Below, piece after piece: positions 1,914-60,462 of a stretch of 64,000 nucleotides of DNA. Position 1 is the first letter of the stretch. Each line of letters begins with the position of its first letter. The DNA is taken from the sequence record PV806337.1. One strand, 5' to 3'. The notes under the pieces are model-generated. The model was not told the DNA's origin, did not search any database, and worked only from the letters and a program-made list of their open reading frames with translations. This stretch comes from a phage. A program made the position numbers and the translations under genes.

Positions 1914-2351
1914 ATGGCAAGCAATATAAAATATAAACGCGATGCTATATCCCTTATGAGAGACGGAATAAAAAGTCAATATAAAAAAGACTCTCAATGC
2001 GCTATCTGCGGTTGTGCTGAAGAATTAGAGCTTCATCATTACCATACGGTGTCTCTACTAGTTAAAAAATTTGCTAAAGAACTCCAATTGGATTTCACTG
2101 ACGAAGAAACAGTCCTTTCAAATAGGACGGCATTCTATGATCGATATAGGCATGAGCTAGTAGAAGACACTGTTACCCTTTGTGTACACCATCACCAACT
2201 ATTACATAAGGTTTACACAAAAGAACCTCCTTTATTTTCTGCTAATAAGCAAAAAGTATGGGTTCAAAAGCAGAAAGACAAATTACAGAATCCTCAAGAA
2301 AAGACACAAGTCAAGACTGAAATAAAATCAGGATTCGCAAGGTTCTTATAA
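1914..2351 (+). CDS. HNH endonuclease
   Basis: CAICGC...LELHHYH...LCVHHHQLLH zinc/HNH motif; GAGGAG RBS 6 nt before ATG at 1914; the ORF-track start at 1827 is a likely N-terminal over-extension. Confidence 0.7.
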   Translation: MASNIKYKRDAISLMRDGIKSQYKKDSQCAICGCAEELELHHYHTVSLLVKKFAKELQLDFTDEETVLSNRTAFYDRYRHELVEDTVTLCVHHHQLLHKVYTKEPPLFSANKQKVWVQKQKDKLQNPQEKTQVKTEIKSGFARFL

Positions 2352-3568
2352 TGGGTTTAAAAAGCTGGATTACTGAAAAGTTAAATCCGGGTCAACGTAT
2401 TATAAGAGACATGGAACCAGTTAGTCATCGCACTAACCGTAAGCCTTTTACCACTGGACAAGCCTATAGCAAGATTGAGATCCTCAATCGAACTGCCAAT
2501 ATGGTTATAGATAGTGCGGCGGAGTGTTCTTATACTGTCGGAGATAAATATAATATTGTTACGTACGCTAATGGCGTCAAAACAAAGACTCTAGACACTC
2601 TCTTAAATGTACGACCTAATCCATTCATGGATATAAGCACATTCCGTAGACTTGTAGTCACTGACCTACTTTTTGAAGGTTGTGCATACATCTATTGGGA
2701 TGGCACATCGCTTTACCATGTCCCGGCTGCTCTTATGCAGGTCGAGGCAGATGCCAATAAGTTTATCAAAAAATTTATATTTAATAACCAGATAGACTAT
2801 CGCGTAGATGAGATTATCTTTATAAAGGATAACAGTTACGTGTGTGGCACAAATTCTCAAATTTCTGGACAATCTCGTGTTGCTACTGTTATTGACTCTC
2901 TTGAGAAGCGTTCTAAAATGCTTAACTTTAAAGAGAAATTCCTCGATAACGGTACCGTGATTGGTCTTATTCTTGAGACGGATGAAATCCTGAACAAGAA
3001 ATTGCGTGAGCGTAAACAAGAAGAATTACAACTCGATTATAATCCTAGTACGGGTCAGTCTTCTGTCCTGATTCTAGATGGTGGTATGAAAGCTAAACCG
3101 TACTCCCAAATATCCTCTTTTAAAGATCTAGACTTTAAGGAAGACATCGAAGGATTTAATAAATCTATTTGTCTAGCCTTTGGAGTTCCGCAAGTACTGC
3201 TTGATGGTGGTAATAATGCGAATATTCGACCAAACATCGAATTGTTCTATTATATGACTATCATTCCTATGCTGAACAAACTGACTAGTTCTCTTACTTT
3301 CTTTTTTGGTTATAAGATTACTCCTAATACTAAGGAAGTAGCTGCATTAACACCAGATAAAGAAGCTGAGGCTAAACATTTAACCTCATTGGTTAATAAT
3401 GGTATTATGACTGGTAACGAAGCTCGTTTAGAGCTGAACCTTGAACCTTTAGATGATGAGCAGATGGATAAGATTCGTATTCCTGCTAACGTTGCTGGTT
3501 CTGCAACAGGTGTATCTGGTCAAGAAGGTGGTAGACCTCAAGGTTCCACCGAGGGAGATAAAGAATGA
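2351..3568 (+). CDS. portal protein
   Basis: 405 aa directly downstream of terminase; start overlaps upstream stop (TAATG); size and position match T5 pb7. Confidence 0.8.
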   Translation: MGLKSWITEKLNPGQRIIRDMEPVSHRTNRKPFTTGQAYSKIEILNRTANMVIDSAAECSYTVGDKYNIVTYANGVKTKTLDTLLNVRPNPFMDISTFRRLVVTDLLFEGCAYIYWDGTSLYHVPAALMQVEADANKFIKKFIFNNQIDYRVDEIIFIKDNSYVCGTNSQISGQSRVATVIDSLEKRSKMLNFKEKFLDNGTVIGLILETDEILNKKLRERKQEELQLDYNPSTGQSSVLILDGGMKAKPYSQISSFKDLDFKEDIEGFNKSICLAFGVPQVLLDGGNNANIRPNIELFYYMTIIPMLNKLTSSLTFFFGYKITPNTKEVAALTPDKEAEAKHLTSLVNNGIMTGNEARLELNLEPLDDEQMDKIRIPANVAGSATGVSGQEGGRPQGSTEGDKE

Positions 3569-4059
3569 TTGATTATAATGGTCTAAAGACCATTTTTGGT
3601 GAAAAACTGCCAGAATCTCATATCTTCTTTGCTACGGTTGCTGCGCATAAATATGTTCCTAGCTATGCTTTTCTGCGTAGAGAACTAGGGCTTTCATCTG
3701 CGCATACTAACCGTAAAGTATGGAAGAAATTTGTAGAGGCTTATGGTAAAGCAGTTCCTCCTGCTCCACCGGCTCCACCATTAACTCTTTCTAAAGATTT
3801 AACTGCGAGCATGTCAGTTGAAGAGGGAGCAGCATTAACACTTTCTGTTACTGCAGCTGGTGGTACTAGTCCATATACTTATGCATGGACTAAAGATGGT
3901 TCTCCTATTCCGGATGCTTCAGGAGCTACCTATACTAAGCCTACAGCAGCAGCTGAGGATGCCGGCTCTTATAAAGTAACTGTAACAGATAGTAAGCAAG
4001 TAAGTAAGGATTCTACTGCATGTGCTGTGACAGTTAATCCTACTGTTCCTGGAGGCTAA
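3565..4059 (+). CDS. capsid decoration protein with C-terminal Ig-like domain (pb10-like)
   Basis: 164 aa; PPAPPAPP linker followed by a beta-rich Ig-like segment; position between portal and protease. Confidence 0.7.
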   Translation: MIDYNGLKTIFGEKLPESHIFFATVAAHKYVPSYAFLRRELGLSSAHTNRKVWKKFVEAYGKAVPPAPPAPPLTLSKDLTASMSVEEGAALTLSVTAAGGTSPYTYAWTKDGSPIPDASGATYTKPTAAAEDAGSYKVTVTDSKQVSKDSTACAVTVNPTVPGG

Positions 4060-4062
4060 TAA

Positions 4063-4695
4063 ATGACACAAGCTGCTATTGACTATAACAAGTTAAAATC
4101 AGCACCCGTTCATTTAGATGCTTATATTAAATCTATTGATAGCGAATCCAAAGAGGGCGTTGTAAAAATCCGTGGATTCGCTAATACAATTAGTAAAGAT
4201 CGCGCTGGTGATGTAATTCCGGCTTCTGCGTGGAAAACATCTAATGCACTTACTAACTATATGAAAAATCCGATTATTCTTTTCGGACACGATCATCGTC
4301 GTCCAATCGGTAAGTGTATTGATCTTAACCCTACTGAAATGGGTCTCGAAATTGAATGTGAGATCTATGAAAGTTCTGACCCAGCTATCTTTTCACTAAT
4401 TAAAAACGGTGTACTGAAAACTTTTAGTATCGGATTCCGCTGCCTAGATGCAGAGTGGGATGAAGCTACTGATATATTTATTATTAAAGATTTAGAACTA
4501 TACGAAGTTTCGGTAGTTTCTGTACCTTGTAATCAGGACTCAACATTCAATCTCGCTAAGAGCATGAATGGTCATGATTATACTGAATGGCGTAAATCTT
4601 TTACTGCAATAAGTTCTAAAGCTGTCCCAGCTCAAGAACGTAATCTTTCTGAACTAGAAAAACTTGCGATAGCTTTAGGCTACGTTAAAGAATAA
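4063..4695 (+). CDS. prohead maturation protease
   Basis: 210 aa; conserved GHDHRRPIGK segment; position immediately upstream of major capsid gene. Confidence 0.75.
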   Translation: MTQAAIDYNKLKSAPVHLDAYIKSIDSESKEGVVKIRGFANTISKDRAGDVIPASAWKTSNALTNYMKNPIILFGHDHRRPIGKCIDLNPTEMGLEIECEIYESSDPAIFSLIKNGVLKTFSIGFRCLDAEWDEATDIFIIKDLELYEVSVVSVPCNQDSTFNLAKSMNGHDYTEWRKSFTAISSKAVPAQERNLSELEKLAIALGYVKE

Positions 4696-4712
4696 CGGAG
4701 AATTATTTAAAA

Positions 4713-6089
4713 ATGACTATTGATATTAATAAGCTGAAAGAAGAACTTGGTCTGGGTGATCTGGCTAAATCTCTGGAAGGTCTGACCGCTGCTCAGAAAG
4801 CTCAGGAAGCTGAACGTATGCGTAAAGAGCAGGAAGAAAAAGAACTGGCTCGTATGAATGACCTGGTTTCTAAAGCTGTTGGTGAAGACCGTAAGCGTCT
4901 GGAAGAGGCTCTGGATCTGGTTAAGTCTCTGGATGAGAAATCTAAGAAGAGCGCAGAACTGTTTGCACAAACTGTAGAAAAACAACAGGAAACTATTGTT
5001 GGTCTTCAGGACGAAATTAAATCTCTGCTAACAGCTCGTGAAGGTCGTTCCTTTGTTGGTGATAGTGTTGCTAAAGCACTGTACGGTACTCAGGAAAACT
5101 TTGAAGACGAAGTAGAAAAACTGGTTCTGTTGTCTTACGTAATGGAGAAAGGTGTATTCGAAACCGAACACGGTCAAAAACACCTGAAAGCAGTGAATCA
5201 GTCTTCTTCTGTAGAAGTTTCTAGTGAAAGCTATGAAACTATTTTCTCTCAGCGTATTATCCGTGACCTGCAGAAAGAGCTGGTAGTTGGCGCACTGTTC
5301 GAAGAACTGCCGATGTCCAGTAAGATTCTTACTATGCTGGTTGAACCGGATGCTGGTAAAGCTACTTGGGTTGCTGCTTCTACTTATGGTACCGATACAA
5401 CTACTGGTGAGGAAGTTAAAGGCGCTCTTAAAGAGATCCACTTCAGTACTTACAAACTGGCTGCTAAGTCCTTCATTACTGATGAAACTGAAGAAGATGC
5501 AATCTTCTCCCTGCTGCCACTACTGCGTAAACGTCTGATTGAAGCACACGCTGTTTCTATCGAAGAAGCCTTCATGACTGGTGATGGTTCCGGTAAGCCG
5601 AAAGGTCTGCTGACTCTTGCTAGTGAAGATAGTGCTAAAGTTATTACTGAAGCTAAAGCTGATGGTTCCGTACTGGTAACTGCTAAAACTATCTCTAAAC
5701 TGCGTCGTAAACTGGGCCGTCATGGTCTGAAACTGAGCAAACTGGTACTGATCGTATCTATGGATGCTTACTACGATCTGCTGGAAGATGAAGAATGGCA
5801 GGATGTTGCACAGGTTGGTAACGATGCTGTTAAACTGCAGGGTCAGGTTGGTCGTATTTATGGTCTGCCGGTTGTAGTTTCTGAATACTTCCCAGCTAAA
5901 GCTACTTCCGCAGAGTTCGCAGTTATTGTTTATAAAGATAACTTCGTAATGCCACGCCAGCGTGCTGTTACTGTTGAACGTGAGCGCCAAGCTGGTAAAC
6001 AGCGTGACGCATACTACGTTACTCAGCGTGTTAACCTGCAACGTTACTTTGCAAATGGCGTTGTATCTGGTGCTTACGCTGCATCTTAA
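4713..6089 (+). CDS. major capsid protein with N-terminal scaffolding-like domain
   Basis: 458 aa; N-terminal charged coiled-coil region then capsid-fold body; strongly biased high-expression codons (ctg, cgt, ggt); followed by strong terminator. Confidence 0.85.
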   Translation: MTIDINKLKEELGLGDLAKSLEGLTAAQKAQEAERMRKEQEEKELARMNDLVSKAVGEDRKRLEEALDLVKSLDEKSKKSAELFAQTVEKQQETIVGLQDEIKSLLTAREGRSFVGDSVAKALYGTQENFEDEVEKLVLLSYVMEKGVFETEHGQKHLKAVNQSSSVEVSSESYETIFSQRIIRDLQKELVVGALFEELPMSSKILTMLVEPDAGKATWVAASTYGTDTTTGEEVKGALKEIHFSTYKLAAKSFITDETEEDAIFSLLPLLRKRLIEAHAVSIEEAFMTGDGSGKPKGLLTLASEDSAKVITEAKADGSVLVTAKTISKLRRKLGRHGLKLSKLVLIVSMDAYYDLLEDEEWQDVAQVGNDAVKLQGQVGRIYGLPVVVSEYFPAKATSAEFAVIVYKDNFVMPRQRAVTVERERQAGKQRDAYYVTQRVNLQRYFANGVVSGAYAAS

Positions 6090-6110
6090 TACAGGCTTTT
6101 CAGCCGATAA

Positions 6111-6137
6111 GGAGAGCTTCGGCTCTCCTTTTTTATT
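6111..6137 (+). terminator. rho-independent terminator after major capsid gene
   Basis: GGAGAGC-TTCG-GCTCTCC hairpin followed by TTTTTTATT. Confidence 0.8.
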
Positions 6138-6148
6138 GGGAAAAATAA

Positions 6149-6661
6149 ATGCAAATAATCACAGCTGAAGACTATAGATTATATGGCGGGTTAAAACGAC
6201 CTGAATTAGAATCTGGAGTAGAGATGATGATTACTGCTGCCAATGCGCTGATTACTAGCCTTTTAGGTATGGATGATGCTGATGCGGTAGACCAGTTAAT
6301 CAATACAAAACCTACTCGTAAAAAATACTTCTTAAGTTCCCCCTCGGCTACTTCAGTAACCAAAATGACTATTAATGATAAGGAGATAGATCCCGAACAG
6401 TATAAGTTATACTCTGATGGGGTTATACTTCTTAAATTTAGTCCTCCAGAAGGTTATATGGATGTAGAGTACACACAAGGTGGATTTAACCCAATTCCTG
6501 AAGATCTCAAACTTGCAGCATGTATGCTAGTAGATCATTGGCATAAACAGGATTACCGTCAAGCTAAAACAATTGGCGGAGAAACAGTTACTTTTAATAA
6601 TACTAAGTCTGGTATTCCAGAACATATTCGTACTATTATTGAAGTTTACAGGAGAGTATAA
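6149..6661 (+). CDS. head completion / head-tail adaptor protein
   Basis: 170-aa ORF at the head-tail joining position after capsid gene; product assigned by synteny only. Confidence 0.55.
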   Translation: MQIITAEDYRLYGGLKRPELESGVEMMITAANALITSLLGMDDADAVDQLINTKPTRKKYFLSSPSATSVTKMTINDKEIDPEQYKLYSDGVILLKFSPPEGYMDVEYTQGGFNPIPEDLKLAACMLVDHWHKQDYRQAKTIGGETVTFNNTKSGIPEHIRTIIEVYRRV

Positions 6662-7428
6662 TGTCTCTTTCTGATTTAGCTACACAAATTATTAAGGAGC
6701 AGCTAGATAATGTTGGGCGTTCCGAGAACAATAAGAATACTGTTGTATATTCTGTTGAAACAGGACTAAAAGATCCTACTAGGGATGGTACTGTTGCTCA
6801 GGTATCTTTTAAGTTCTCAAAACCTGTATCCCAAGATCTCCTTAATGTTAGGACCGCTTCTATTCTAAAAGCAGTTTCTTCTAGCTTAGATCTAACAGGA
6901 GACTTAGGGGCTTTAGAAAGTCTTATTCAAGCAACCGCCGGTAAAAAATCCTCTGTAGGTAAAAAACGTTCTACTGGTAGAGTTCAAGTAAACTTTGGGG
7001 ATCCTAGAGACGTAGAAGATGGATATTCTGGTGCAGTAACAGGTGCTTCTGGTCGTTTTGTATCAAATAGTAATATGAAGGTTATTCTGGAGTTGGTTGC
7101 TAAAGAATACTTAATAAAGGATATGAAAAAAGCAGGAGCTCCCCTTAAATTTAGAACAGGTCGTTTTGCAAATTCTCTAAAAGTTAAAGATGTTATGCTT
7201 AGAGATGCTGGAACTAGCAAAGGTGCTCCTGAATTAAATGTTACATATAATTATATGGTACGTCCATATTCAGTATTTAATCCTGCAGTATCTACATATC
7301 GAAGATTGTCATTACGACCCTACCCAGGTGCTAGAAACCCCCAAAGACTAATTGGAGAGGCGATAGCTAAAGCTGCAAGAGACTTAATTCACTCCAGGTA
7401 CAAAATTAAGGTTAATCAAGGAACCTAA
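6661..7428 (+). CDS. neck / tail completion protein
   Basis: 255-aa ORF with AGGAGAG RBS; assigned by synteny. Confidence 0.5.
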   Translation: MSLSDLATQIIKEQLDNVGRSENNKNTVVYSVETGLKDPTRDGTVAQVSFKFSKPVSQDLLNVRTASILKAVSSSLDLTGDLGALESLIQATAGKKSSVGKKRSTGRVQVNFGDPRDVEDGYSGAVTGASGRFVSNSNMKVILELVAKEYLIKDMKKAGAPLKFRTGRFANSLKVKDVMLRDAGTSKGAPELNVTYNYMVRPYSVFNPAVSTYRRLSLRPYPGARNPQRLIGEAIAKAARDLIHSRYKIKVNQGT

Positions 7429-7431
7429 TAA

Positions 7432-7917
7432 ATGGATCACAGAACAAGTATAGCACAAGCTCTGGTTGACCGAATAGCCAAACAAATGGATGGCTCTCAA
7501 CCAGATGAATATTTTAATAACTTGTATGGAAACGTCTCACGTCAAACTTATAAGTTTGAGGAAATACGAGAGTTTCCTTATGTTGCAGTTCATATCGGAA
7601 CTGAAACTGGGCAGTATCTTCCCTCAGGTCAACAGTGGATGTTTTTAGAACTTCCTATCCTGGTGTATGATAAAGAGAAAACAGACATTCAAGAGCAACT
7701 TGAAAAACTCGTAGCGGATATAAAAACCGTTATTGACACAGGTGGAAATTTAGAATATACTGTTAGTAAACCTAATGGATCGACCTTCCCATGTGAGGCG
7801 ACTGATATGAGCATTACATCAGTTAGTACAGATGAGGGTCTACTGGCCCCATATGGTTTAGCAGAAATAAATGTAACAGTGAGGTATCAGCCTCCACGTA
7901 GGTCACTTCGCAGATAA
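7432..7917 (+). CDS. tail terminator protein
   Basis: 161-aa ORF directly upstream of tail tube gene; assigned by synteny. Confidence 0.5.
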   Translation: MDHRTSIAQALVDRIAKQMDGSQPDEYFNNLYGNVSRQTYKFEEIREFPYVAVHIGTETGQYLPSGQQWMFLELPILVYDKEKTDIQEQLEKLVADIKTVIDTGGNLEYTVSKPNGSTFPCEATDMSITSVSTDEGLLAPYGLAEINVTVRYQPPRRSLRR

Positions 7918-7943
7918 GTTACAGATTAGGAGAAAATAATTAA

Positions 7944-9350
7944 ATGTCTTTACAACTATTACGTAATACTCGAATCTTCGTGTCTACGGTTAAGACTGGT
8001 CACGATAAGACCAACACGCAAGAGATTCTAGTTCAGGATGATATTTCTTGGGGTCAGGACAGTAACTCAACAGATATTACTGTTAACGAAGCTGGTCCGC
8101 GTCCTACTCGTGGTTCTAAACGTTTTAACGATTCCTTGAATGCGGCTGAGTGGAGTTTTTCTACTTATATTCTGCCATACAAGGATAAAACCTCTAATAA
8201 ACAGATTGTTCCCGACTACATGTTATGGCATGCTCTTTCTAGTGGTAAAGCGTTAAACCTTGAGGGAGACACAGGTGCGCATAATAATGAAGCTAACTTC
8301 ATGGTTAACTTTAAAGATAACTCTTATCATGAGTTGGCTATGCTGCACATCTACATTCTTACTGACAAAGCATGGAGCTATATTGACTCTTGCCAGATCA
8401 ACCAGGCAGAAGTTAACGTTGATATTGAGGATATTGGTCGTGTAACTTGGTCTGGTAATGGTAATCAGCTCATCCCGTTAGATAGCCAACCATTTGATCC
8501 AGATGCACTAGGTATTGATGATGAAACCTATATGACTATTCAGAGTTCTTACATTAAGAACAAGTTAACTATCCTAAAAATTAAGGATATGGATTCTGAT
8601 AAGGCATATGATATTCCTATTACTGGTGGTACTTTTACCATTAATAACAACATCACGTACCTAACCCCGAATATTATGTCACGTGTAAATATTCCAATCG
8701 GCTCATTTACAGGTGCGTTTGAGTTAACGGGTTCTTTGACAGCATACCTTAATGATAAGTCTCTTGGTTCTATGGAACTGTACAAAGATCTTATCAAAAC
8801 CCTTAAGGTAGTTAACCGTTTTGAAATTGCACTTATTTTGGGTGGTGAATACGATGATGAGCGACCGGCAGCTGTGCTAGTTGCTAAACAGGCGCACGTT
8901 AATATCCCTACTATTGAGACTGATGATGTACTTGGTACTTCAGTAGAGTTTAAAGCTATTCCTACTGATTTGGATACTGGTGACGAAGGATACTTAGGCT
9001 TCTCTAACAAGTATACCAAAACTACAATAGCGAATCTAATTGCTACCGGAGATGGTGCTAAAACTCCTCCAGTTCCCGTTAAATCCATTACAGTTAAGTC
9101 GGCAGGTGAGGCTGTTTCTGTAACAAATAGTAATACTTTACAGATGTCTGTTGAGGTAACACCTCCAGAAGCTACTAATAAGGCTGTAACTTGGTCTATT
9201 TCTAGTGGTAACGCAGCTACGATTGATGCAGAATCTGGGTTATTAACAGCTGATGCCTCTAAAACTGGTGCAGTTACTGTGAAGGCTGTAGCTAAAGACG
9301 GTTCTGGTGTAGAAGGTACTAAAACTATCACAGTTAGTGCTGGTGGTTAA
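7944..9350 (+). CDS. tail tube protein with C-terminal Ig-like (Big_2-like) domain (pb6-like)
   Basis: 468 aa; AGGAGA RBS; C-terminal ~85 aa (SITVKSAGEAVSVTNSNTLQMSVEVTPPEATNKAVTWSISSG...) resembles bacterial Ig-like domain. Confidence 0.75.
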   Translation: MSLQLLRNTRIFVSTVKTGHDKTNTQEILVQDDISWGQDSNSTDITVNEAGPRPTRGSKRFNDSLNAAEWSFSTYILPYKDKTSNKQIVPDYMLWHALSSGKALNLEGDTGAHNNEANFMVNFKDNSYHELAMLHIYILTDKAWSYIDSCQINQAEVNVDIEDIGRVTWSGNGNQLIPLDSQPFDPDALGIDDETYMTIQSSYIKNKLTILKIKDMDSDKAYDIPITGGTFTINNNITYLTPNIMSRVNIPIGSFTGAFELTGSLTAYLNDKSLGSMELYKDLIKTLKVVNRFEIALILGGEYDDERPAAVLVAKQAHVNIPTIETDDVLGTSVEFKAIPTDLDTGDEGYLGFSNKYTKTTIANLIATGDGAKTPPVPVKSITVKSAGEAVSVTNSNTLQMSVEVTPPEATNKAVTWSISSGNAATIDAESGLLTADASKTGAVTVKAVAKDGSGVEGTKTITVSAGG

Positions 9351-9354
9351 ATAA

Positions 9355-10257
9355 ATGTACTACTCTCTAATGCGAGAGTCAAAAGTTATAGTTGAGTATG
9401 ATGGTAGGGCATTTCATTTTGATGCCCTATCAAACTATGATATACAGACTTCCTACGAGGAATTCAAGACTCTTCGTAGGACTGTTCATCATAGAACTAA
9501 CTATGCAGACTCTATTATAAATGCTCAAACCCCCTCTTCTATCTCTCTAGCAGTAAATTTCAGTAATACTCTTACAGAGGCTAACTTCTTTGAATGGTTA
9601 GGTTTTGATAGAAAAGGTAATACTTTCTTACTCCCACTATATAGTAGTAATATTGAACCTATTATGTTCAATATCTATATAGTAAATAAAGATAATAACT
9701 GTGTATATTTTGAAAACTGTTATGTATCTACGGTAGATTTTTCTTTAGATAAGAACATACCAATTCTTAATGTTGGTATTGAGTCTGGGAAATTCTCAGA
9801 AGTATCTACCTATAGAGAAGCAGCTTCTATTATACAGGGTGAAGTAATGTCTTACAGCCCAGTAATAGCTTCTACTAATGGCAGCATCTTACCCGGTCTT
9901 ATTTCTGCCTCTTTATCTTTCCAACAGCAGTGCTCCTGGAGAGAGGATAAGAGTGTTTTTGATATAAATAAAATTTATAATAATAAAAGAGCTTATGTAA
10001 ATGAAATGAATGCTTCGGCAACCATTTCTCTATATTACTTAAAACGTTTTGCAGGAGATATGGTTTACAATATCGAACCGGAGACAGATGTACCTTTAAA
10101 TATAAGAAATAATAATATTTCTATAGATTTTCCTTCAGCACGTATTACAAAACGCCTAGATTTCTCAGATGTGTATAGAGTTGAGTGGGATATTATACCT
10201 ACTGCTTCTTCAGACCCAGTGAGAATAGATTTCTTTGGAGAAATTAAAAATGATTAA
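9355..10257 (+). CDS. tail protein (p140-like)
   Basis: 300-aa Asn/Ser-rich ORF between tail tube and tape-measure genes. Confidence 0.5.
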   Translation: MYYSLMRESKVIVEYDGRAFHFDALSNYDIQTSYEEFKTLRRTVHHRTNYADSIINAQTPSSISLAVNFSNTLTEANFFEWLGFDRKGNTFLLPLYSSNIEPIMFNIYIVNKDNNCVYFENCYVSTVDFSLDKNIPILNVGIESGKFSEVSTYREAASIIQGEVMSYSPVIASTNGSILPGLISASLSFQQQCSWREDKSVFDINKIYNNKRAYVNEMNASATISLYYLKRFAGDMVYNIEPETDVPLNIRNNNISIDFPSARITKRLDFSDVYRVEWDIIPTASSDPVRIDFFGEIKND

Positions 10258-10654
10258 TTTAAAAGATATTACTCTTGATACTCGTACTATTACTCTTTCC
10301 TACCCAGGTATGCCGAACTTTAAATTAGAACTTAACTATATGTCTCGTGCTACCTCTAAACGTGTTATTTCTTCTGCTAAACGCGATGAATGGGTTAATG
10401 GTACTTTGATTCAGGTACAGGATGATGATAAGTTCATTGAAGCCTTCGTTGACGCAGCTATTAAAGGTTGGACCGGTTTGACTGTAGGTGACGTTGAAAA
10501 ACTGATGCTGATTGAAACAGATGCTGATCCTGCTACTGAAGTTCCTTTTAGCCGCGATAATGCTGTAATGCTCATGCAGAACTCTGCTGCGTTTGATTCT
10601 TGGATCAACCAGACAGTGTTCCACTTAGACACTTTTCGTAGCCCAAAAGCGTAA
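10250..10654 (+). CDS. putative tail assembly chaperone
   Basis: 134 aa from ATG 10250 with GGAG RBS; classical chaperone position upstream of tape measure; ORF-track start 10235 is a TTG. Confidence 0.45.
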   Translation: MINLKDITLDTRTITLSYPGMPNFKLELNYMSRATSKRVISSAKRDEWVNGTLIQVQDDDKFIEAFVDAAIKGWTGLTVGDVEKLMLIETDADPATEVPFSRDNAVMLMQNSAAFDSWINQTVFHLDTFRSPKA

Positions 10655-10715
10655 AGAACTCCTAGATGCTGTTGCTGATTTTGCAGATAAATGTATTAAA
10701 AGCTCAGCATCTAAA

Positions 10716-11084
10716 ATGACCAAACAACAATATTTAATACTTTGTGAGTCAATGGGTATAGAACCTGATCCTAAGGCTATGCCTGTTGAACTCGAAGATT
10801 TTCCACCTATTGTATCTATTAGTATGAATATCTATAACAGTCTGATTGACTGTTTCATACCGGGTGACTTTCCTATTTTTATAGGTAAGGATAAGGCTGC
10901 ATTAGGTGTTTTATTTGATATTTACGGGATTACTGATCCTATAGAAAAAGAATTTGTTCTACACATTATCAATATATTTGATGCTAAAGCTGTAGATGCT
11001 GCACGTAAACGTGCTGAGCAGCATAAACCGCAAAACGGAAGGATTCCTAACGTTAAGCCACATGCTAGATCTCGTGCACGGTAA
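10716..11084 (+). CDS. putative tail assembly chaperone, second ORF (possible frameshift extension)
   Basis: 122-aa ORF lacking Shine-Dalgarno; its frame is open from 10629 and overlaps the end of the upstream ORF. Confidence 0.4.
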   Translation: MTKQQYLILCESMGIEPDPKAMPVELEDFPPIVSISMNIYNSLIDCFIPGDFPIFIGKDKAALGVLFDIYGITDPIEKEFVLHIINIFDAKAVDAARKRAEQHKPQNGRIPNVKPHARSRAR

Positions 11085-11119
11085 AAGTTTCCTCCAATGG
11101 GCGTTCCACGATGAGGCTT

Positions 11120-11151
11120 GGCTCTGGGTGATTTGCCCAGAGCCTTTTTTA
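11120..11151 (+). terminator. rho-independent terminator
   Basis: GGCTCTGGG-tgatttg-CCCAGAGCC hairpin followed by TTTTTT. Confidence 0.75.
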
Positions 11152-11167
11152 TTGGGAAAAATAAAAC

Positions 11168-23290: not shown

Positions 23291-23299
23291 GGTTTTATA

Positions 23300-25030: not shown

Positions 25031-25033
25031 AAG

Positions 25034-25068
25034 AAAACCCCAGAGGGATATCCCTCTGGGGTTTATTA
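25034..25068. terminator. bidirectional rho-independent terminator at late/early module junction
   Basis: perfect palindrome AAAACCCCAGAGGGA-TA-TCCCTCTGGGGTTT flanked by A-run and T-run; lies between convergent LtfB and dut genes. Confidence 0.85.
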
Positions 25069-47103: not shown

Positions 47104-47602
47104 AACAATACTCCTGTGTTGGAAATAAAATAAGTTTTCTTTAGGACTATTCAGAAAGAATAGAACAACTGTTACTGTCAATTTCTCAACAAATTAATCG
47201 CAAATACTGAAGTGGGGTGGCAACTTCCACTTTCACGCTGCGCTGCTGCTTTGCTATATCGCACAAATCCTTGAGGATGGCCGCTAAGCCAGATTTGCTC
47301 ACCTAATGCTTCATATACTAGCTCATACTAGATGCAATATAACTTACAGAATCACGTCTCGGAGTTTTTCACTCCTCCCATCTCACTTCACAACCACCTC
47401 ATACTAGGTTGCTTCGAGGCCTTACCAGGGTTCCTATGGGACGCAGATCGCTAAGTATTCTATTAACTATTTGTTTAAAAACTAACACGTAACAGTTAAA
47501 ACAACCCTTAATGGGGCAGCCTAACTGTTCCGTATCGCGGATTGTAAACAAGAAAAATTAGCAAAATCAATTTTTACTAATGTCTCTCAATTCAATATAA
47601 AT

Positions 47603-47631
47603 ATTATATCAAGATTTTGGGCATCCTGCAA
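47603..47631 (-). promoter_or_regulatory. T5-type sigma70 promoter heading a long leader
   Basis: - strand TTGCAG, 17-bp spacer, TATAAT, then ATTTATATTGAATTGAGAGAC. Confidence 0.6.
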
Positions 47632-47722
47632 GTAAAATTTTCCGGATGGTGCTATCATTGGTCTTGAGTACGGATAAAACCGAGCCAAAATGACTCGGTA
47701 ATCAGAGTTCAGCTAATAAAAA

Positions 47723-49258: not shown

Positions 49259-50054
49259 AAGGTCTACCCTCTAAATGAGCTTCTACACGAGCAATAAAAT
49301 CAGGATCACTAAAAGCATCTACCGCACCTTTACTCCAGTAAGGGACACCACGTTCTTCCAGCTGGTACATCTCACTACGAGTCATACCTTGATAGCCCGG
49401 TTCCGCCGCGAGGGCACTATCATAGTAGTTAACTACCATAAATTTCGCAGCAGTCCTATTAAGAACAGGAAATAATTCCCAGTAGAAGTTAATTACTTGG
49501 TTAGAGCAACCAACCACAATGATCATATCTTGACTGGTAATACCATCAAAAACATTATACATTTCTGCGTATGCAGGAGCATGCTCTCCAAAGAAGATTA
49601 CATTAGGTTTAACCCATTTATAATCATCTGGATCAATAGAATTGTATCCTACATCAATAATCCGTTTATTGCTACTATTGTAGCTATCAGCTACAACAAC
49701 CTCTTTTAAATATCCGTGAATATGCAGAATGTCACTATGTGGAACGCCAGCACGCTCAATAAGGTCATCAACGTTGGTAGTCAAGTTTACTACTTGACCT
49801 GGATATTGTTTATACCATTCACCAATACGCAAATGCGCAAGATTGGGTTCAACAGTTTTTAGCTCTTCACGACGCTTGTTGTAAAACATATGGGTTTTAT
49901 GATAAAAATTACCACGAAAGGCATGAATATTACATACTTCTTCTAGATCATAGTCATCCCACAATGCTTTACCACTAGCAGTATCAGTACGGAAGGCTCG
50001 TACACCACTTTCAACACTCAAACCCGCACCACTAATAATAATTAATCTACGCAT
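49218..50054 (-). CDS. Sir2-family NAD-binding protein (no zinc-ribbon cysteines)
   Basis: 278 aa; ISGAGLSVESGVRAFR (GAGxS…SG…FR), TTNVDDLIERAG, ILHIHGY (HG), FFGE, IVVGCSNQV (VVGTSxxV-like); lacks the CxxC…CxxC zinc module. Confidence 0.65.
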   Translation of the reverse strand: MRRLIIISGAGLSVESGVRAFRTDTASGKALWDDYDLEEVCNIHAFRGNFYHKTHMFYNKRREELKTVEPNLAHLRIGEWYKQYPGQVVNLTTNVDDLIERAGVPHSDILHIHGYLKEVVVADSYNSSNKRIIDVGYNSIDPDDYKWVKPNVIFFGEHAPAYAEMYNVFDGITSQDMIIVVGCSNQVINFYWELFPVLNRTAAKFMVVNYYDSALAAEPGYQGMTRSEMYQLEERGVPYWSKGAVDAFSDPDFIARVEAHLEGRPYVSRSKGNRYVHS

Positions 50055-50268
50055 TTTTCACCTGTTCTCTGAAGTTTTGCCCAATACTGTCTAATAGCTC
50101 AGCTAATTCTTTATTGCCTTTCTCCATTAAGGTATTAGCAATAACTTCTAGCATAGTAGCGCAGGATTCAACACCATCCTTATAGCCAGTTTCCCACTGC
50201 TGCATTAATGCATTTTCCAAAGCGGAGTTTAAACCCTTATCTGGTAGCATCGGCTTCGAGAATGCCAT
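50047..50268 (-). CDS. hypothetical protein
   Basis: 73-aa ORF. Confidence 0.4.
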   Translation of the reverse strand: MAFSKPMLPDKGLNSALENALMQQWETGYKDGVESCATMLEVIANTLMEKGNKELAELLDSIGQNFREQVKNA

Positions 50269-50915: not shown

Positions 50916-52763
50916 TTACTTAGCTCGAATATCCTGATGTTTCACCCTGCCCATAACCTCATGCTGTTTGCCTGGGTTAAATGGACGAGCACCTGGATTT
51001 CCAAGATACCCACAAACTCGACGAGTTACTTCAAGAGTTTCGGGGTCATGATTACCACAGATAGGGCACTTAAATCCATCTTCGGATGCTATTGTTTCAC
51101 CTAAGAATCCACATTTACCACAAGAATCCACTGGAGTATTAATACCGAAGTAATGAACTTTACTAGCAGCATAATTAATAACCCATTCTAGTGCATCTGG
51201 GAATCGTTTCATATCCGGTAGTTCTACATAGGAAATACACCCACCAGAAGCAATCGGAGTAAAGTTAGATTCATAATCAAATTTCACATTGGGAGCAACT
51301 TTACGTTCCACATCAAGGTGGTGAGAGTTAGTGTAGTATCCTTTGGACAGAATATCTTCATGCTCCGGGAAATATTCACGATCTAAACGGCAAAACCTAT
51401 CACACAGGGACTCTGACGGTGTAGCATACAGGCTATAACCTAACTTAGTTTCTTCCTTCTTCTGATCGACTCTATCTCGCATGTACTGCAATACACGCTG
51501 AACAAACTTGATGCTGGTCTCGGACATTGTGTCTACATCTTTGCCAAACATGAACTGTAGCATTTCATGACAACCAATATATCCTAGAGATACAGAAGCA
51601 CGGTTATAGAAATGATCGAATACGTATTCATCAGGCTCCAAGCGCAGTCCAAAGGCTCCTGACATATAGAGGATGGGTGCAGCTTTAGCTTGAATGTATT
51701 TTAAGCGATCAACTCTCCACTCCAACGCTTTTAATGCTGTATCCACACGTAGCTCAAGCAAATCAAAGAATAGATCAATATTTCCTTCAGCTTCGATAGC
51801 AATTCTAGGCAAGTTTACAGAAACAACACCTAAGTTATTACGACCTGCAGTTTCACCATCTTCTGTAGCAGCTAGGAATGAACGGCAGCCCATAGAAACT
51901 TTATAGTCACCAGTAACTTCCACAACCTTATCATAGCTGATATAATCTGGATACATACGTTCAGCAGTACATTTCATAGCTAACTTCTTGATGTCATAAT
52001 TAACATCCCCTGGTTTCATATTAACGCCATCACGGAGTACAAATACCAGTTTAGGGAAGATAGCTGTACGCTTATTGATACCTAAACCATCCATGCGTAC
52101 TTTCAGTATTGCTTTCTGTACTAGACGTGCTTCCCAAGAAGTTCCTAGACCAAAACCAAAGGTAATAAATGGACTCTGCCCATTAGAGTTGAACATGGTA
52201 TTGATTTCATATTCTAAACCCTGACAAGCGTCATAGACTTCTTTTTCAGTCATCTCCGTAGCCATTACGGATGCTTTGGCTTCATCCTTAGTCCAACGTT
52301 TTGCAAACGCATGATTTTTGTCATAAGATTTACGAACATAAGGGGCTAATACTTCATCAAGGCGATCTACAGAAGTACCACCATACTGATGGGAGCTAAC
52401 CTGAGTGATAATCTGAGCAGTAATAGCCGCCGCAGTAGTGATAGAGTTTGGAGTGCTAATTTCAGCATTACCAACCTTCATACCATTCTTCAACATATCT
52501 TCCAGAGCTACCAGGCAACAGTTAGTCATACCTAATGCAGCATAATCAGCATCATGGAAATGAATATCCCCAATCATATGAGCATTTCGAATCTGAATTG
52601 GCATTTCTTCTAAAATCAGATACTTACTCAATTCACCTGCAAGCATATCCCTTTGTGTAGGGAAACGTTCACTCGGTTTGTTCGCGTTATTAAAAAGTAA
52701 CTCTTCATTGGCAGATCCCTCAATAATTTCCTTACAATTTCTAATCAATTCATCTTTGTTCAT
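50916..52763 (-). CDS. nrdD: anaerobic ribonucleoside-triphosphate reductase (class III)
   Basis: 615 aa; C-terminal zinc-ribbon cysteines (CGKCGF…CPICGN) and glycyl-radical motif RVCGYLG. Confidence 0.9.
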   Translation of the reverse strand: MNKDELIRNCKEIIEGSANEELLFNNANKPSERFPTQRDMLAGELSKYLILEEMPIQIRNAHMIGDIHFHDADYAALGMTNCCLVALEDMLKNGMKVGNAEISTPNSITTAAAITAQIITQVSSHQYGGTSVDRLDEVLAPYVRKSYDKNHAFAKRWTKDEAKASVMATEMTEKEVYDACQGLEYEINTMFNSNGQSPFITFGFGLGTSWEARLVQKAILKVRMDGLGINKRTAIFPKLVFVLRDGVNMKPGDVNYDIKKLAMKCTAERMYPDYISYDKVVEVTGDYKVSMGCRSFLAATEDGETAGRNNLGVVSVNLPRIAIEAEGNIDLFFDLLELRVDTALKALEWRVDRLKYIQAKAAPILYMSGAFGLRLEPDEYVFDHFYNRASVSLGYIGCHEMLQFMFGKDVDTMSETSIKFVQRVLQYMRDRVDQKKEETKLGYSLYATPSESLCDRFCRLDREYFPEHEDILSKGYYTNSHHLDVERKVAPNVKFDYESNFTPIASGGCISYVELPDMKRFPDALEWVINYAASKVHYFGINTPVDSCGKCGFLGETIASEDGFKCPICGNHDPETLEVTRRVCGYLGNPGARPFNPGKQHEVMGRVKHQDIRAK

Positions 52764-53421
52764 TAATTATTTCCTCAATAAACCTTGCTACTACTTCTGG
52801 CTCAATACTAAAAAATTCTGTAGCACCATCAAAATCTTTATATTGACAATTATATTCCTTAAACTGTAAATGGGTTTCTCTCTCAATATGCATAGCTTTT
52901 GATCTATCTGAAAAGCTATACTCCTTAAATATTTTTAAATCATGTATGTTAGAGGAAGTTTTAATATCTCTGAGTCTATCTTTAGTTCTGCTAGACACAC
53001 CTATTTTGGTTCCCACATTACTTACTAAAATATATACGTTAGTAGGATAATTATCCTTCTCTAATAAACATATAGGACAACCAGAATTATGATTTCTAAC
53101 ACTATCAAGTGTAGACTCCCATTTATGATCATTCTCACAGCTGAACATGATTTTACTCTTGGAATTGATATATTTACCTTCCATCTTTATTCCACGGGCA
53201 GCTAAAGATTCATTTACTTCTTTAAGATCTAAAGTACGGCTAGCACAATAAGGGCAACCTCTACCACCTTTTACGTTATCTACTCTAGCCTCCCAACTAT
53301 GCCCATTAGAGCACTTAAATATAGCCTTGGATTTAGCTGATACATACGTGCTTAGCATAACTATTCCTCTAGGAGCAAGTGCTAAGTTCACATCTTCTGT
53401 AGTTATTTTCTTTCTTACCAT
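52750..53421 (-). CDS. T5orf172-type (GIY-YIG-like) domain protein with N-terminal zinc ribbons; homing-endonuclease-like
   Basis: 223 aa; two C-x4-H…C-x2-C repeats; C-terminal VYILV…GTKIGVSS…R…ERETHLQF…DGATEFF pattern. Confidence 0.6.
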   Translation of the reverse strand: MVRKKITTEDVNLALAPRGIVMLSTYVSAKSKAIFKCSNGHSWEARVDNVKGGRGCPYCASRTLDLKEVNESLAARGIKMEGKYINSKSKIMFSCENDHKWESTLDSVRNHNSGCPICLLEKDNYPTNVYILVSNVGTKIGVSSRTKDRLRDIKTSSNIHDLKIFKEYSFSDRSKAMHIERETHLQFKEYNCQYKDFDGATEFFSIEPEVVARFIEEIINEQR

Positions 53422-53442
53422 TAAATTCTCCTTAATTCACAT

Positions 53443-53471
53443 ATTATACATAATTCCACCCCATACGTCAA
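53443..53471 (-). promoter_or_regulatory. sigma70 promoter (divergent region)
   Basis: - strand TTGACG, 17-bp spacer, TATAAT, then AAGGAG RBS and ATG at 53421. Confidence 0.65.
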
Positions 53472-53643
53472 CTACATTTTTCTAATACTATTTGACTTTT
53501 GATTTTTATCAATTTTTATTGATGCTATACAGCATAATATCTTTACATATAAATAAATGATTATCTAGTATCATATTTCTACCTTTATAAGCAAGTAAAT
53601 TTTTTATTTAAAAGCAATATCATAGGTTTATTTAAAATTATAC

Positions 53644-53672
53644 TTGCTTTTTGCTGTAAACCTTGTTATAAT
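53644..53672 (+). promoter_or_regulatory. T5-type sigma70 promoter upstream of phoH
   Basis: TTGCTT, 17-bp spacer, TATAAT. Confidence 0.7.
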
Positions 53673-53748
53673 ATATTTGTAAGTTGATAAACAAGATCTC
53701 TTTGTTGATCCTCTGTTAGAAGCGAAGTACACTATAGGAGTGTTATTT

Positions 53749-54501
53749 ATGGGAAAAGCACGTCAAAAAAGAGAGAACCGCAATGGTTCAAGAAAGCGTG
53801 GCAACAAGTATGAGAATAACGTAATTCAGGCTGATTTTTCTAATGATTACGCTAACCCAGTTGCTAAATCCCTAGTAGGTAAAAACCGCGAGCAAAAATC
53901 ATATATCAATATGATCAAGAACAACACAGTGACTGTGGGCATCGGTGAGCCAGGTACTGGTAAAACCTTTATTCCGTCCGTTCTTGCAGCTCAGGAACTC
54001 GTAGACATTCACTCAGATATTGAGCAAGTGATCCTCGTACGTCCTAATGAACCTCTAGGTAAGTCTCTTGGTATGCTTCCTGGTGATCTAGCAGAAAAGC
54101 TAGAGCCTTGGTTGGAGCCAATAGCTGATGGTATGAAATGGGCCATCGGCGATCATGCCTATAAGGGATATGTCGAACGTCAGAAAATTAAATTTTTGGC
54201 TGTCGAACATGCTCGTGGCAGAACTTTCAACAACTCCTATGTAATTGTCGATGAAGCTCAGAATATTTCCGTTGAGGCAATGATTTGTCTTCTAACTCGT
54301 GTAGGGCAAGACTGCCGTTTAATTATCTGCGGAGATATAGCTCAGAAAGACATTAAAGGTGACTCAGGTCTAGCACTCCTTATGGAAGTCTATGAGAAAT
54401 ACGAAAATGCCCCATTCTCAATGATCGAATTGATTGATAACGTTCGTTCTGTTGAGTCTAAAGCATTCTATGACATCTTTAAAGACATGGGGAAGGTGTA
54501 A
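53749..54501 (+). CDS. phoH: PhoH-like ATPase
   Basis: Walker A GEPGTGKT, Walker B VIVDEAQN; start set at ATG 53749 after GGAG. Confidence 0.85.
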   Translation: MGKARQKRENRNGSRKRGNKYENNVIQADFSNDYANPVAKSLVGKNREQKSYINMIKNNTVTVGIGEPGTGKTFIPSVLAAQELVDIHSDIEQVILVRPNEPLGKSLGMLPGDLAEKLEPWLEPIADGMKWAIGDHAYKGYVERQKIKFLAVEHARGRTFNNSYVIVDEAQNISVEAMICLLTRVGQDCRLIICGDIAQKDIKGDSGLALLMEVYEKYENAPFSMIELIDNVRSVESKAFYDIFKDMGKV

Positions 54502-58449: not shown

Positions 58450-58979
58450 TTACAGCAATGTATGCAGTTGGGCCGAATGGGGAGTTCGGCCTCCGCGGTA
58501 AACTTCCATGGGGTTCCTTCAAAGAAGAACTAGATGCTTTCTATTCTCAACTGGACGTGTTGAATCCAGATAACATCATCATTGGTGCGGGTACTTATTT
58601 AGCTCTTCCATACGCCGTTAGAGAACGTATGATTGGAGCTTCTGACCTATTTATTCGTGCTGATCGTCCACTGCCAGATGATATTACACATGATATTTAC
58701 ACCCCAATTTCTAAGATTGGGGATGCTTTACCTACATTTCTGAAAGATCAGCAGACAGTAGTTCTAGGTGGTGCTAACCTTCTTCTAGAAATGTATCAAT
58801 ATGGTCATATTGAAAGTGCTTTTGTATCCACAATCTTTAGTAATCAAAAACTAGAGGCAGATGTATATCTGGATAATACGATTCTAGATTACAACTATGA
58901 ATCTACTCGTTTAGTTTACGCAACTGGCGCAAACAGTGATAACAGCCTGCGATTTGTACAGGAATTGGTTACTTATTAA
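58446..58979 (+). CDS. frd: dihydrofolate reductase
   Basis: 177 aa; DHFR-like N-terminus ([18 protein letters not shown]), glycine-rich IIGAGTY and VVLGGANLL segments; position between nrdB and thyA. Confidence 0.7.
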
Positions 58980-59833
58980 TGGATCAGTATATAGAAGTTG
59001 GAAAACGTATTCTATCAGAAGGTCAGTGGGTAACGAATCCCAGAACAGGGGTTCGTTGCCTCACCATTATTGATGCAGATTTTACTTTTAACGTAGGTGC
59101 AGGTGAATTCCCACTTATTACTACTCGTAAGGCGTTTGCAAAACAAGCAATAATGGAAATGATTGGGTATCTACGTGGGTATGATTCAGCAGCACAATTC
59201 CGCGCTATTGGTGTTAACACATGGAATGCTAATGCAAATGAAAACTTAGCTTGGCTAGACAATCCATACCGTAAAGGTGAGGATGATATGGGACGAGTCT
59301 ATGGTGTTCAAGGACGTCAGTGGACTAATTCCGATGGTCTTATGTTTGACCAACTAGTCAAGATTTATCATAATCTGAAAAAGGGCATTGATGATCGTGG
59401 GGAAATTCTAACCTTCTGGAATCCGGGGGAGTTCTCAAAGGGTTGCTTACGTCCATGTATGCATACTCATCAGTTCTCTATTTTGGGAGATACATTATAT
59501 CTGAACTCTTTCCAGAGATCTAATGACTTCCTGTTAGGCCAAGTATTTAACATGGTTCAGTGCTATACGCTTCTAGCATTAATGGCACAGATTACAGGCC
59601 TTAAACCAGGAATTGCACGCCAGAAGATTATCAATCTTCATATCTATGAGGATCAGTATAATGTTTTGATGGAGCACAAGCAATTCGATCGTGAACCTTT
59701 TGCACTCCCAACTCTAGAAATTAATCCAAATATTAAGACTTTAGATGACGTATTGACTTGGGTAAGTAAGGATGATTTTACTGTTCAAGGTTATGAACAT
59801 CATCCAGCTATTGCATACCCATTCACTGTTTAA
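58979..59833 (+). CDS. thyA: thymidylate synthase
   Basis: 284 aa; active-site cysteine context [10 protein letters not shown]; overlapping start with upstream stop. Confidence 0.85.
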
Positions 59834-59846
59834 TTTAAAATATTAT

Positions 59847-59876
59847 TTGCTTTAATCCCAGTACTTATAGTATAAT
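59847..59876 (+). promoter_or_regulatory. T5-type sigma70 promoter upstream of HNH gene
   Basis: TTGCTT, 18-bp spacer, TATAAT. Confidence 0.6.
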
Positions 59877-59903
59877 ATCTCCTATATACATTATAGGAGA
59901 TAT
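59875..59903 (+). promoter_or_regulatory. perfect 12-bp inverted repeat overlapping -10 and Shine-Dalgarno of HNH gene
   Basis: ATATCTCCTATA-tacat-TATAGGAGATAT; right arm contains the SD AGGAGA 8 nt before ATG 59908. Confidence 0.7.
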
Positions 59904-59907
59904 ATTT

Positions 59908-60462
59908 ATGATCGTACAAGAGGGGTGGACAAAAGAATCCGCACGTAATAGGTTTATCTATAATCCTCTTACTGGGGAGATTTTAAATAGAATTAACAGT
60001 GGTAGGGCTAAGAAAGGACAGATAGCCGGGTACCTAGACAAGTCTACTGGATATATTCGGGTAACATTGGCAGGAAAAAGAATGAAAGGACATCAGTTAG
60101 CCTTCTTATACATGGAAGGATATATACCTGATACTATAGATCACATCAACAGAATAAAATCTGATAATAGATGGTGTAATTTAAGGGAATCTTCACCCCA
60201 AGAGAATGCTAGAAATATTAAAGCAAGAAGTAAATCTGGTTATTTAGGGGTTGGGTGGCATAAGCCAAGTCAAAAATGGTGGGTATATACTAAAGATGTA
60301 AAAGGAGCGCAGATTAATGGTGGTTACTTTGATTATACGAAATTAGAGGAAGCAGTCAATAAAGCTAATGAACTCCGTCAGCAATTACATGGACATACTG
60401 CTATTTTAGAAGTTTTTAATCCTGATCAACCAATACCTACCATAGAGGAACTTAATAAATGA
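59908..60462 (+). CDS. HNH homing endonuclease
   Basis: 184 aa; IDHINRIKSDNRWCNL HNH motif; paralogous in motif to the HNH at 29689-30204; inserted between thyA and RNase H. Confidence 0.7.
   Translation: MIVQEGWTKESARNRFIYNPLTGEILNRINSGRAKKGQIAGYLDKSTGYIRVTLAGKRMKGHQLAFLYMEGYIPDTIDHINRIKSDNRWCNLRESSPQENARNIKARSKSGYLGVGWHKPSQKWWVYTKDVKGAQINGGYFDYTKLEEAVNKANELRQQLHGHTAILEVFNPDQPIPTIEELNK

Follow-up and report, generated by a model that had tools for sequence, protein, structure and literature searches.

The 64,000-nucleotide stretch of phage DNA considered here (record PV806337.1), hereafter the window, contains four open reading frames (ORFs) that an earlier note, made from the sequence alone, had taken for homing-endonuclease-like genes at the junctions of conserved genes. 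All four are present exactly as described. The first (1914–2351, plus strand, 145 amino acids) lies between terL (483–1799) and the portal gene (2351–3568), the second (29689–30204, minus strand, 171 amino acids) between the SbcD-like D12 gene (28715–29692) and D11 (30241–31014), the third (52750–53421, minus strand, 223 amino acids) beside nrdD (50916–52763) and the fourth (59908–60462, plus strand, 184 amino acids) between thyA (58979–59833) and rnh (60459–60935); the neighbours, too, are those that had been named. Each of the four has many homologs at very low E-values, and they are thus real genes rather than chance ORFs.

The source phage is, by its sequence, T5-like (Demerecviridae, Tequintavirus type). 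The first 6 kb of the window match 469 phage records, nearly all from T5-like phages of Salmonella and Escherichia, and in 430 of these the match extends over 80% or more of the query, the top identity being 97.5%; across the T5-like records (430–469) the window is matched at 80–98%. The genes also follow one another as in T5, starting with the small terminase subunit, then the tail genes and finally the early replication and nucleotide-metabolism genes. About 450 annotated relatives could therefore be used to map the presence and absence of each gene, for which the query consisted of the gene with approximately 600 bases of flank per side, so that records without the gene drop below 80% coverage. 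The resulting numbers are counts of records, including GenBank/RefSeq duplicates and partial contigs.

The mapping, which the earlier note had itself proposed, bore out a sporadic distribution for three of the genes and not for the fourth. The terL-portal gene was recovered with both flanks in 435 of 447 records, and the shortfall of 12 consists, in the rows sampled, of short contigs and distant phages. The corresponding figures are 9 of 446 for the D12-D11 gene, 9 of 445 for the nrdD-phoH gene and 12 of 440 for the thyA-rnh gene. One gene is thus universal and three are rare, a contrast that is unambiguous even though records rather than phages were counted. A DNA search with the three rare genes joined end to end matched 40 records in 40 places; none of the 40 carries two of the three, and the trio of the window is seen nowhere else in the collection. 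In their carriers, each rare gene always occupies the same junction.

Searches at the protein level gave a similarly discontinuous picture. The D12-side protein has 9 records at 90% identity or more and 1618 below 60%, the nrdD-side protein 21 at 90% or more and 396 below 60%, and the rnh-side protein 9 at 95% or more, 3 at 60–80% and the remainder below 60%. Near-identical copies of the D12-side and rnh-side genes are about as many as the records that cover the gene with both flanks. Some of the carriers (rutana and TrudiGerster) belong to another genus, Epseptimavirus, and other deposited records already list the same genes as homing endonucleases, at 95–100% identity.

The D12-side and rnh-side proteins both contain the Pfam domain HNH_3 (E 7e-11, 42 bits, and E 3.6e-12, 46 bits, respectively; cutoff 24.8), and all Pfam matches reported here for these two proteins and for the nrdD-side protein exceed the curated thresholds. 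Between the two HNH_3 proteins there is 34% identity over 102 aligned amino acids (E 2e-17). The motif IDH(D/I)NRI(R/K)(H/S)DNRW, which had been singled out as common to them, is real, and a longer IDH...NR...DNRW..NL...N core is present in both. The paralogous spread proposed from this likeness is also supported, as the two proteins are related to each other and to hegH, hegI and hegJ of T5 (28–48%), and there are up to 6–8 matching places per T5-like genome.

The D12-side gene is a free-standing HNH_3 homing endonuclease gene (HEG) located exactly at the start codon of D12. At this point T5 has a gap of 36 bases between D11 and D12, which contains a terminator. The rho-independent terminator of D11 (30216–30235, minus strand), identical to the hairpin annotated in T5, is retained directly upstream of the HEG, and no separate promoter-like site for the HEG was seen on its strand beside this terminator. 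The ATG of the HEG takes the start context of D12, and its stop codon overlaps the regenerated D12 start (ATGA); on the best explanation, the HEG would be translationally coupled to D12. A different HNH_3 gene, 35% identical, sits at the identical point of D12 in phage NR01, with the same overlap.

Likewise, the rnh-side gene is a free-standing HNH_3 HEG, with a weak AP2-like C-terminal region and a match to phrog_99 (E 2.5e-56), whose stop codon overlaps the start of rnh (ATGA). The second codon of rnh is here AGT as against TCG or TCA, serine all the same. The gene replaces a cassette of terminator, promoter and small ORF present in ABTNLsp9 and SUT_E520, while T5 has only a spacer of 133 bases at this place. 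The protein is 48% identical to T5 hegJ and 52% identical to hegE of Bf23, which in that phage holds the corresponding place upstream of rnh and likewise overlaps it by 4 bases.

The third rare gene belongs to a different nuclease family. Its product combines two treble-clef/CapR-like zinc fingers with a C-terminal T5orf172 nuclease domain, as seen from Pfam matches to the DUF4379 treble-clef zinc finger (two stretches, E 3.5e-15, 56.4 bits), CapR (two stretches, 35.5 bits), MUG113 and T5orf172 (E 1.8e-10, 41.7 bits, cutoff 20) and from the endonuclease family phrog_681 (E 2e-49). The listed carriers all show the gene beside nrdD. It is part of a cassette of 806 nucleotides (52749–53554, minus strand) that does not align to T5 and whose ends were obtained from a junction alignment with T5 and MET_P1_100_107. 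The cassette replaces 221 nucleotides of the nrdD upstream region together with the first nrdD codons, and supplies a promoter-like site, a ribosome-binding site, the ORF and a new nrdD start, so that the N-terminus of NrdD is MNKDELIRNCK and not MNRNDELKYKEMQSLIRNCK. The promoter-like site (TTGACG-17-TATAAT, 53443–53471, minus strand, 11 of 12 positions matching) lies at the position of the nrdD promoter at empty sites, and in the alignment its layout is that of the T5 and MET_P1 nrdD promoter region. In AKFV33, JLBYU43 and ESCO30 this nrdD-proximal site is taken by paralogs with 43–46% identity, and the nrdD-phoH spacer of phiLLS holds an HNH_3 plus AP2 gene.

A separate observation on nrdD is that 50 residues encoded in the window (51470–51612) are missing from the NrdD protein of T5 (AY543070), the two proteins being otherwise about 98% identical in this region. 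The lengths of nrdD in rutana and MET_P1_100_107 are consistent with the longer form, and the gap looks like an in-frame deletion specific to T5.

The comparison with the Epseptimavirus carriers places the boundaries of the transferred DNA at base resolution. At the nrdD junction, the recently transferred tract extends from 52648 to 53813 and comprises the cassette, approximately 100 nucleotides of nrdD and approximately 260 nucleotides towards and into phoH. The window is 99.6% identical to rutana over 52640–53760 (4 mismatches in 1121 bases), compared to a background of 87.5% in nrdD, 90.7% in phoH and 88.5% in nrdA, and the tract is bounded by flanking mismatches at 52647 and 53814. At the D12 junction, 29460–30204 is 96% identical to TrudiGerster, with flanks at 85–87%: the HEG and approximately 170 bases of the 5' end of D12 are 96–98% identical, as against 85–87% for D12, D11 and D10. 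The part of D12 that moved with the HEG (29517–29688, minus strand) has 3 mismatches to TrudiGerster, the rest of D12 being 86.7% identical. The TrudiGerster copy (4001–4519 of the compared sequence) has a 7-nucleotide insertion in an A-run after window position 29811, which shifts the frame of the last approximately 40 codons and spares the HNH_3 domain. The copy is annotated as a shorter "putative homing endonuclease" and represents the stage of decay expected of such elements. For the rnh-side gene, the carriers examined are 99–100% identical to the window over the HEG and towards thyA, and identity falls to 77–93% at the rnh boundary.

In other phages the three junctions are empty or filled by paralogs that are 35–52% identical. 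T5 lacks the three genes of the window; its own hegH, hegI and hegJ occupy three junctions that carry no such gene in the window, and the claim that such genes mark variable junctions is therefore supported. The HNH genes of T5 (F-TflI/II/IV; hegH, hegI and hegJ, which correspond to P-TflVIII-X) and hegE of Bf23 are the closest known counterparts in the same phage group, sharing the HNH_3 domain, a length of about 170–185 amino acids and a free-standing position between conserved early genes. The HEGs of T5 are other members of the family and lie at other junctions than those of the window, namely at nrdA/nrdB, at D6/primase and behind the gene of the origin-binding protein. HEGs have been named as the main source of differences among T5-like genomes in the BF23 genome paper (PMC10644984), and the same was reported for HNH genes in a Tequintavirus paper from 2025 (PMC12639943).

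The nrdD-side gene resembles the T5orf172 HEGs described by Barth, Dunham and Seed in 2023 (PMC10448857), as does T5.154 of T5, in that CapR/DUF4379-type finger repeats at the N-terminus are followed by a C-terminal T5orf172 domain. According to that study, T5orf172 HEGs with zinc-finger repeats are most often found beside terminase (35%) and ribonucleotide reductase (33%) genes, and nuclease genes lie at boundaries of genetic exchange (PMC10448857). This fits the location of the HEG in the window beside a ribonucleotide reductase gene and of its paralog in relatives beside a terminase gene. The study is centred on the vibriophage ICP1 with an added survey, and T5-like phages are not named in the searched portion of its text; a further difference is that the cassette of the window alters the beginning of the nrdD coding sequence as well.

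When the window was searched in six frames with the four proteins, hegH, hegI and hegJ of T5, T5.154 and the HEG of NR01, no further copy or remnant came to light, and searches of PDB sequences with the three HEG proteins gave no meaningful match. The D14 homolog at 26410–26892 was considered as a further HEG and rejected, being a PDDEXK nuclease but a core gene shared with T5.

The terL-portal gene is of a different kind. Its product is 83% identical to T5.153 over 145 of 145 amino acids, and the two are of the same length. The homologs all belong to the Pfam family PF26848, carry the UniRef name "Nicking endonuclease" and reach into Vibrio phages of the same family. In an alignment of 56 sequences, C29, C32, H41, H42, C90, H94 and H98 are invariant, and among PDB sequences a profile built from them finds just two, 9qgv and 9qgx ("Nicking endonuclease", E 1e-64). 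The AF2 model of the protein (pLDDT 87.4) superimposes in Foldseek on 9qgv_A with an E-value of 3.5e-17, a TM score of 0.97 on the target and a root-mean-square deviation of 1.3 Å. The title of 9qgv, released in March 2026, is [quoted passage not shown]; the two structures are the H42Q and H42A mutants, and the catalytic H42 is conserved in the protein of the window, as are the other invariant Cys and His residues.

Together with the terL-portal position, these likenesses to T5 SciA (T5.153; 9qgv, 9qgx; PF26848) leave no notable difference, and the two genes are orthologs from separate species within one genus group. The gene at 1914–2351 is thus the conserved late gene sciA, with a product predicted to make the single-strand, site-specific nicks, at GCGC-containing sites, that characterize T5-type virion DNA. 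The loci sciA and sciB map to the late region of T5 and are reported to bring about the site-specific nicks of its DNA; T5 mutants without nicks are viable (PMC3517423). In the distant Erwinia phage Key of the Demerecviridae, too, small terminase, large terminase and nicking endonuclease follow one another in an order described as typical (PMC10194208). The literature searched on SciA yielded such indirect statements (PMC3517423, PMC10194208) and not the primary paper of the structures, and the text of the BF23 paper gives no justification for its label "nicking endonuclease" (PMC10644984).

The designation of this protein as HNH was a weak point in the earlier note. The local Pfam copy gave no match, the strong PHROGs match is to a family of unknown function (phrog_3497, E 4e-69) and the match to the "HNH endonuclease" family phrog_8048 is weak (E 6.5e-6); Foldseek matches of the model to the HNH-containing Cap5 are insignificant (E 2–4). 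What stands is the Cys/His pattern. The model has a strand (38–42) followed by a helix (46–56) and a second strand (86–90) followed by a helix (91–101) around the conserved His and Cys residues, and "HNH-like" seems reasonable in the sense of an HNH-like arrangement of zinc ligands and histidines.

The description of the terL-portal region as a variable junction holds in that its length varies among relatives, but this variation is due to a separate T5orf172 gene located upstream of sciA and not to sciA. T5, JLBYU43 and others carry an annotated GIY-YIG/endonuclease gene at a site that is empty in the window (1896–1912); positions 1–1895 and 1913–11153 align to T5 on either side of T5.154, and the HEG carried at this site is about 720–740 nucleotides long. 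T5.154 has the same architecture of two zinc fingers and a T5orf172 domain as the nrdD-side protein, at 36–38% identity, and it is the real mobile element of the terL-portal junction, one that the window lacks. Erwinia phage Key is likewise without the endonuclease gene that T5 has between terminase and nickase (PMC10194208). As to the annotation of T5.154, its first 28 annotated codons (T5 31522–31606) lie in sequence that is kept in the window (1811–1894, 100% amino acid match), its homology to other T5orf172 HEGs starts at residue 54 and the JLBYU43 version is annotated as shorter (224 amino acids), and the annotated start is therefore probably too far upstream. A 13-bp terminator-like hairpin is located at 1809–1840.

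A pattern search for the nick consensus of T5, RGCGCRGG, found a conserved copy of the major nick site (GGCGCGGG) inside D13 (27929–27936, plus strand), aligned to the "major DNA single-chain interruption" of T5 and presumed to be a substrate of SciA. A second exact match (AGCGCAGG) was observed at 50158–50165 (plus), on the same strand as the D13 site and in a segment without a match to T5, and could be a nick site specific to the lineage; two matches are, however, what chance predicts (2 observed and 1.5 expected), and the lack of enrichment in the window is uninformative. The tetranucleotide GCGC forms the core both of the T5 nick site and of the DNA crystallized with SciA. It is depleted in the window, with 57 copies compared to 86 ± 9 expected from dinucleotide-preserving shuffles, all 100 of which gave at least 57. 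The depletion may reflect avoidance of nicking by SciA or of restriction by the host.

Taking these observations together, we are highly confident that three of the four genes are free-standing HEGs spread by homing and that the fourth is the nickase gene sciA. The earlier claim of four free-standing mobile endonucleases thus stands for the three with sporadic distribution, precise sites, transfer tracts and paralogs at the same junctions, and falls for the terL-portal gene. Co-infection of a HEG-carrying phage with a relative that lacks the HEG would set the stage for homing. The endonuclease would then nick or cut the DNA of the relative in or near the conserved neighbour (D12/sbcD, nrdD, thyA/rnh), and the break would be resected and repaired by recombination with the HEG-carrying genome as the template, whereby the HEG and a few hundred bases of its flank would be copied into the recipient. 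The insertions would spare the host genes through the coupling to D12, the promoter-like site and new start provided for nrdD and the overlap of stop and start codons at rnh.

The sporadic distribution, the fixed sites, the intact nuclease motifs, the tracts that cross genera, the decaying copy and the alternative occupants were observed; cleavage by the HEG products, their target sites and their regulation we infer. Several points limit the interpretation as a whole. The carrier counts include duplicates and partial contigs and are therefore not counts of independent events. For the rnh-side gene the only clear step in identity is at the rnh boundary, and the contrast is weak on the thyA side because the carriers examined are close relatives (96–98% background). 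The placement of the T5orf172 domain in the GIY-YIG superfamily is one that we take over from the established classification. Finally, the assignment of the terL-portal gene to SciA draws on PDB titles and sequence identity.

The alternative that fares best is that the three genes are kept for some benefit to the phage, such as exclusion of competitors, recombination and repair, or regulation, and are not purely selfish. This overlaps with homing rather than opposing it, and HEGs of T4 are indeed known to cause marker exclusion that favours the genome of the carrier (PMC2988022). The three genes also adjoin recombination and nucleotide-metabolism genes, and one of them provides the promoter-like site and start codon of nrdD. 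More than 95% of the relatives live without each gene, however, and one copy is frameshifted, and we consider it unlikely, if still worth keeping in mind, that benefit to the phage explains their presence.

With respect to the terL-portal gene, HK97 gp74 is a precedent for an HNH protein encoded beside terminase genes, and the gene might be thought to encode mainly an HNH cofactor of the terminase for the cutting of genome ends, as in HK97-type phages, rather than a nickase. The position between terL and the portal gene agrees with this, and many phages encode an HNH endonuclease beside their terminase genes (PMC3592412). Yet the T5 protein of the solved structure bears the name SciA and was crystallized with DNA carrying GCGC, the central part of the nick consensus of T5. 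Furthermore, sciA is the genetic name of a nicking locus, and mutants without nicks are viable although a cofactor of the terminase would be expected to be essential. A main role in genome-end cutting is thus improbable.

Even less probable is that the three sporadic genes are ancestral remnants that have been lost repeatedly. Their rarity would be compatible with loss, and the copy in TrudiGerster is visibly decaying, but the copies in the other genus are 96–99.6% identical within sharp tract boundaries and the surrounding genes only 85–91%. We reject repeated loss on this contrast, because vertical descent would have given the HEGs the same divergence as their flanks; also, the sets of carriers are disjoint, and for the D12-side and nrdD-side genes there are no intermediates at 60–90% protein identity. 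That all four genes are mobile homing endonucleases deserves hardly any credence: the terL-portal gene does sit between two conserved genes at a length-variable junction, with an HNH-like Cys/His pattern and a weak PHROGs match to HNH endonucleases, but universal presence, which the earlier note itself had named as the result that would speak against mobility, is what was found (435 of 447 records, family-wide to Vibrio phages), the gene is the ortholog of a T5 nickase with a solved DNA complex, and the length variation belongs to the upstream T5orf172 gene.

The three HEGs also have well-studied parallels in T4, despite the fact that T4 belongs to an unrelated phage family and that no introns are involved in the window. 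In T4, free-standing HEGs are found beside nrd and td genes, with co-conversion of flanks and marker exclusion, and such HEGs can cut hundreds of bases away from their own gene (PMC2988022). The seg and mob genes resemble the HEGs of the window in being intergenic and located by nucleotide-metabolism and recombination genes (mobC at nrdG/nrdD, mobE at nrdB/nrdA, and I-TevI in td) and in the co-conversion of flanks. A further parallel concerns expression, as a hairpin that sequesters the ribosome-binding site, with a promoter start inside it, is found in I-TevI, I-TevII, I-TevIII and segB and in mobE of Aeh1 among T4-type phages (PMC2988022), and the region upstream of 59908 appears to be arranged in a similar manner.

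A 12-bp hairpin (59875–59903, plus strand), located by a scan and by RNA folding, holds in its right arm the Shine-Dalgarno sequence of the rnh-side HEG (AGGAGA, 59895–59900). It has a predicted energy of -20.3 kcal/mol (z -3.6), and 0 of 200 shuffles were as stable; no comparable structure was found for the nrdD-side gene. A putative T5-type early promoter for the HEG, read from the sequence (59847–59876, plus strand), consists of TTGCTT at 59847–59852, 18 bases and TATAAT at 59871–59876, and was passed over by the consensus scanner because TTGCTT matches TTGACA at only 3 of 6 positions. Transcription continuing from thyA would yield an RNA with the whole hairpin, and an RNA that starts about 7 bases past the -10 hexamer would lose most of the left arm. 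In that case, thyA read-through transcripts would be translationally silent and the endonuclease would be made only from promoter-initiated transcripts. Unlike the T4 systems, which use late promoters, the site in the window looks like a T5 early-type promoter. It is conceivable, though we consider it less likely than not, that the region upstream of 59908 is a T4-style expression switch that arose independently in T5-like phages, and that HEGs at this location move whole alternative thyA alleles between T5-like lineages.

The thymidylate synthase of the window (58979–59833) is only 30% identical to Thy of T5, without a match at the DNA level, and other Tequintavirus and Epseptimavirus records carry the allele of the window; there are therefore two non-orthologous thyA genes among T5-like phages. 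The swapped block (unaligned over 58990–60464) begins about 10 nucleotides inside thyA and ends at the start of rnh, adjoining the HEG.

The earlier finding is thus correct in the main, with one correction, sciA, and otherwise describes biology that is already known. The terL-portal gene should be annotated as sciA, a non-mobile core gene, and the other three as free-standing HEGs. Such genes mark the points of DNA exchange in T5-like genomes and are useful for studies of mosaicism, for phage crosses and for the engineering of phages for therapy. The window adds clear illustrations of DNA passing between Tequintavirus and Epseptimavirus, with boundaries at the level of single bases, and leaves the current understanding unchanged.

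Other parts of the window also differ from T5. A segment of 754 nucleotides (46969–47722) upstream of the homolog of the T5 replication-origin-binding protein contains no ATG-initiated ORF of at least 45 amino acids in a simple gene call, and within it 47177–47437 has no match to T5. The small ORFs at 36012–36341 (minus), 41515–41724 (minus), 50047–50268 (minus) and 61955–62170 (plus) lie partly or wholly in segments without a T5 match, one such small ORF being situated between the DNA polymerase and primase genes. No Pfam domain was found in any of these, or in the set of five small ORFs specific to the window, and the listed ORFs may represent further cargo of variable junctions. Finally, the lateral tail-fibre module at 21030–25090 (ORFs 20907–23015, 23012–23290 and 23300–25030) has no DNA match to the single ltf gene of T5 and consists of two large ORFs and a small one, in agreement with the published occurrence of one-protein and two-protein tail fibres in this group.

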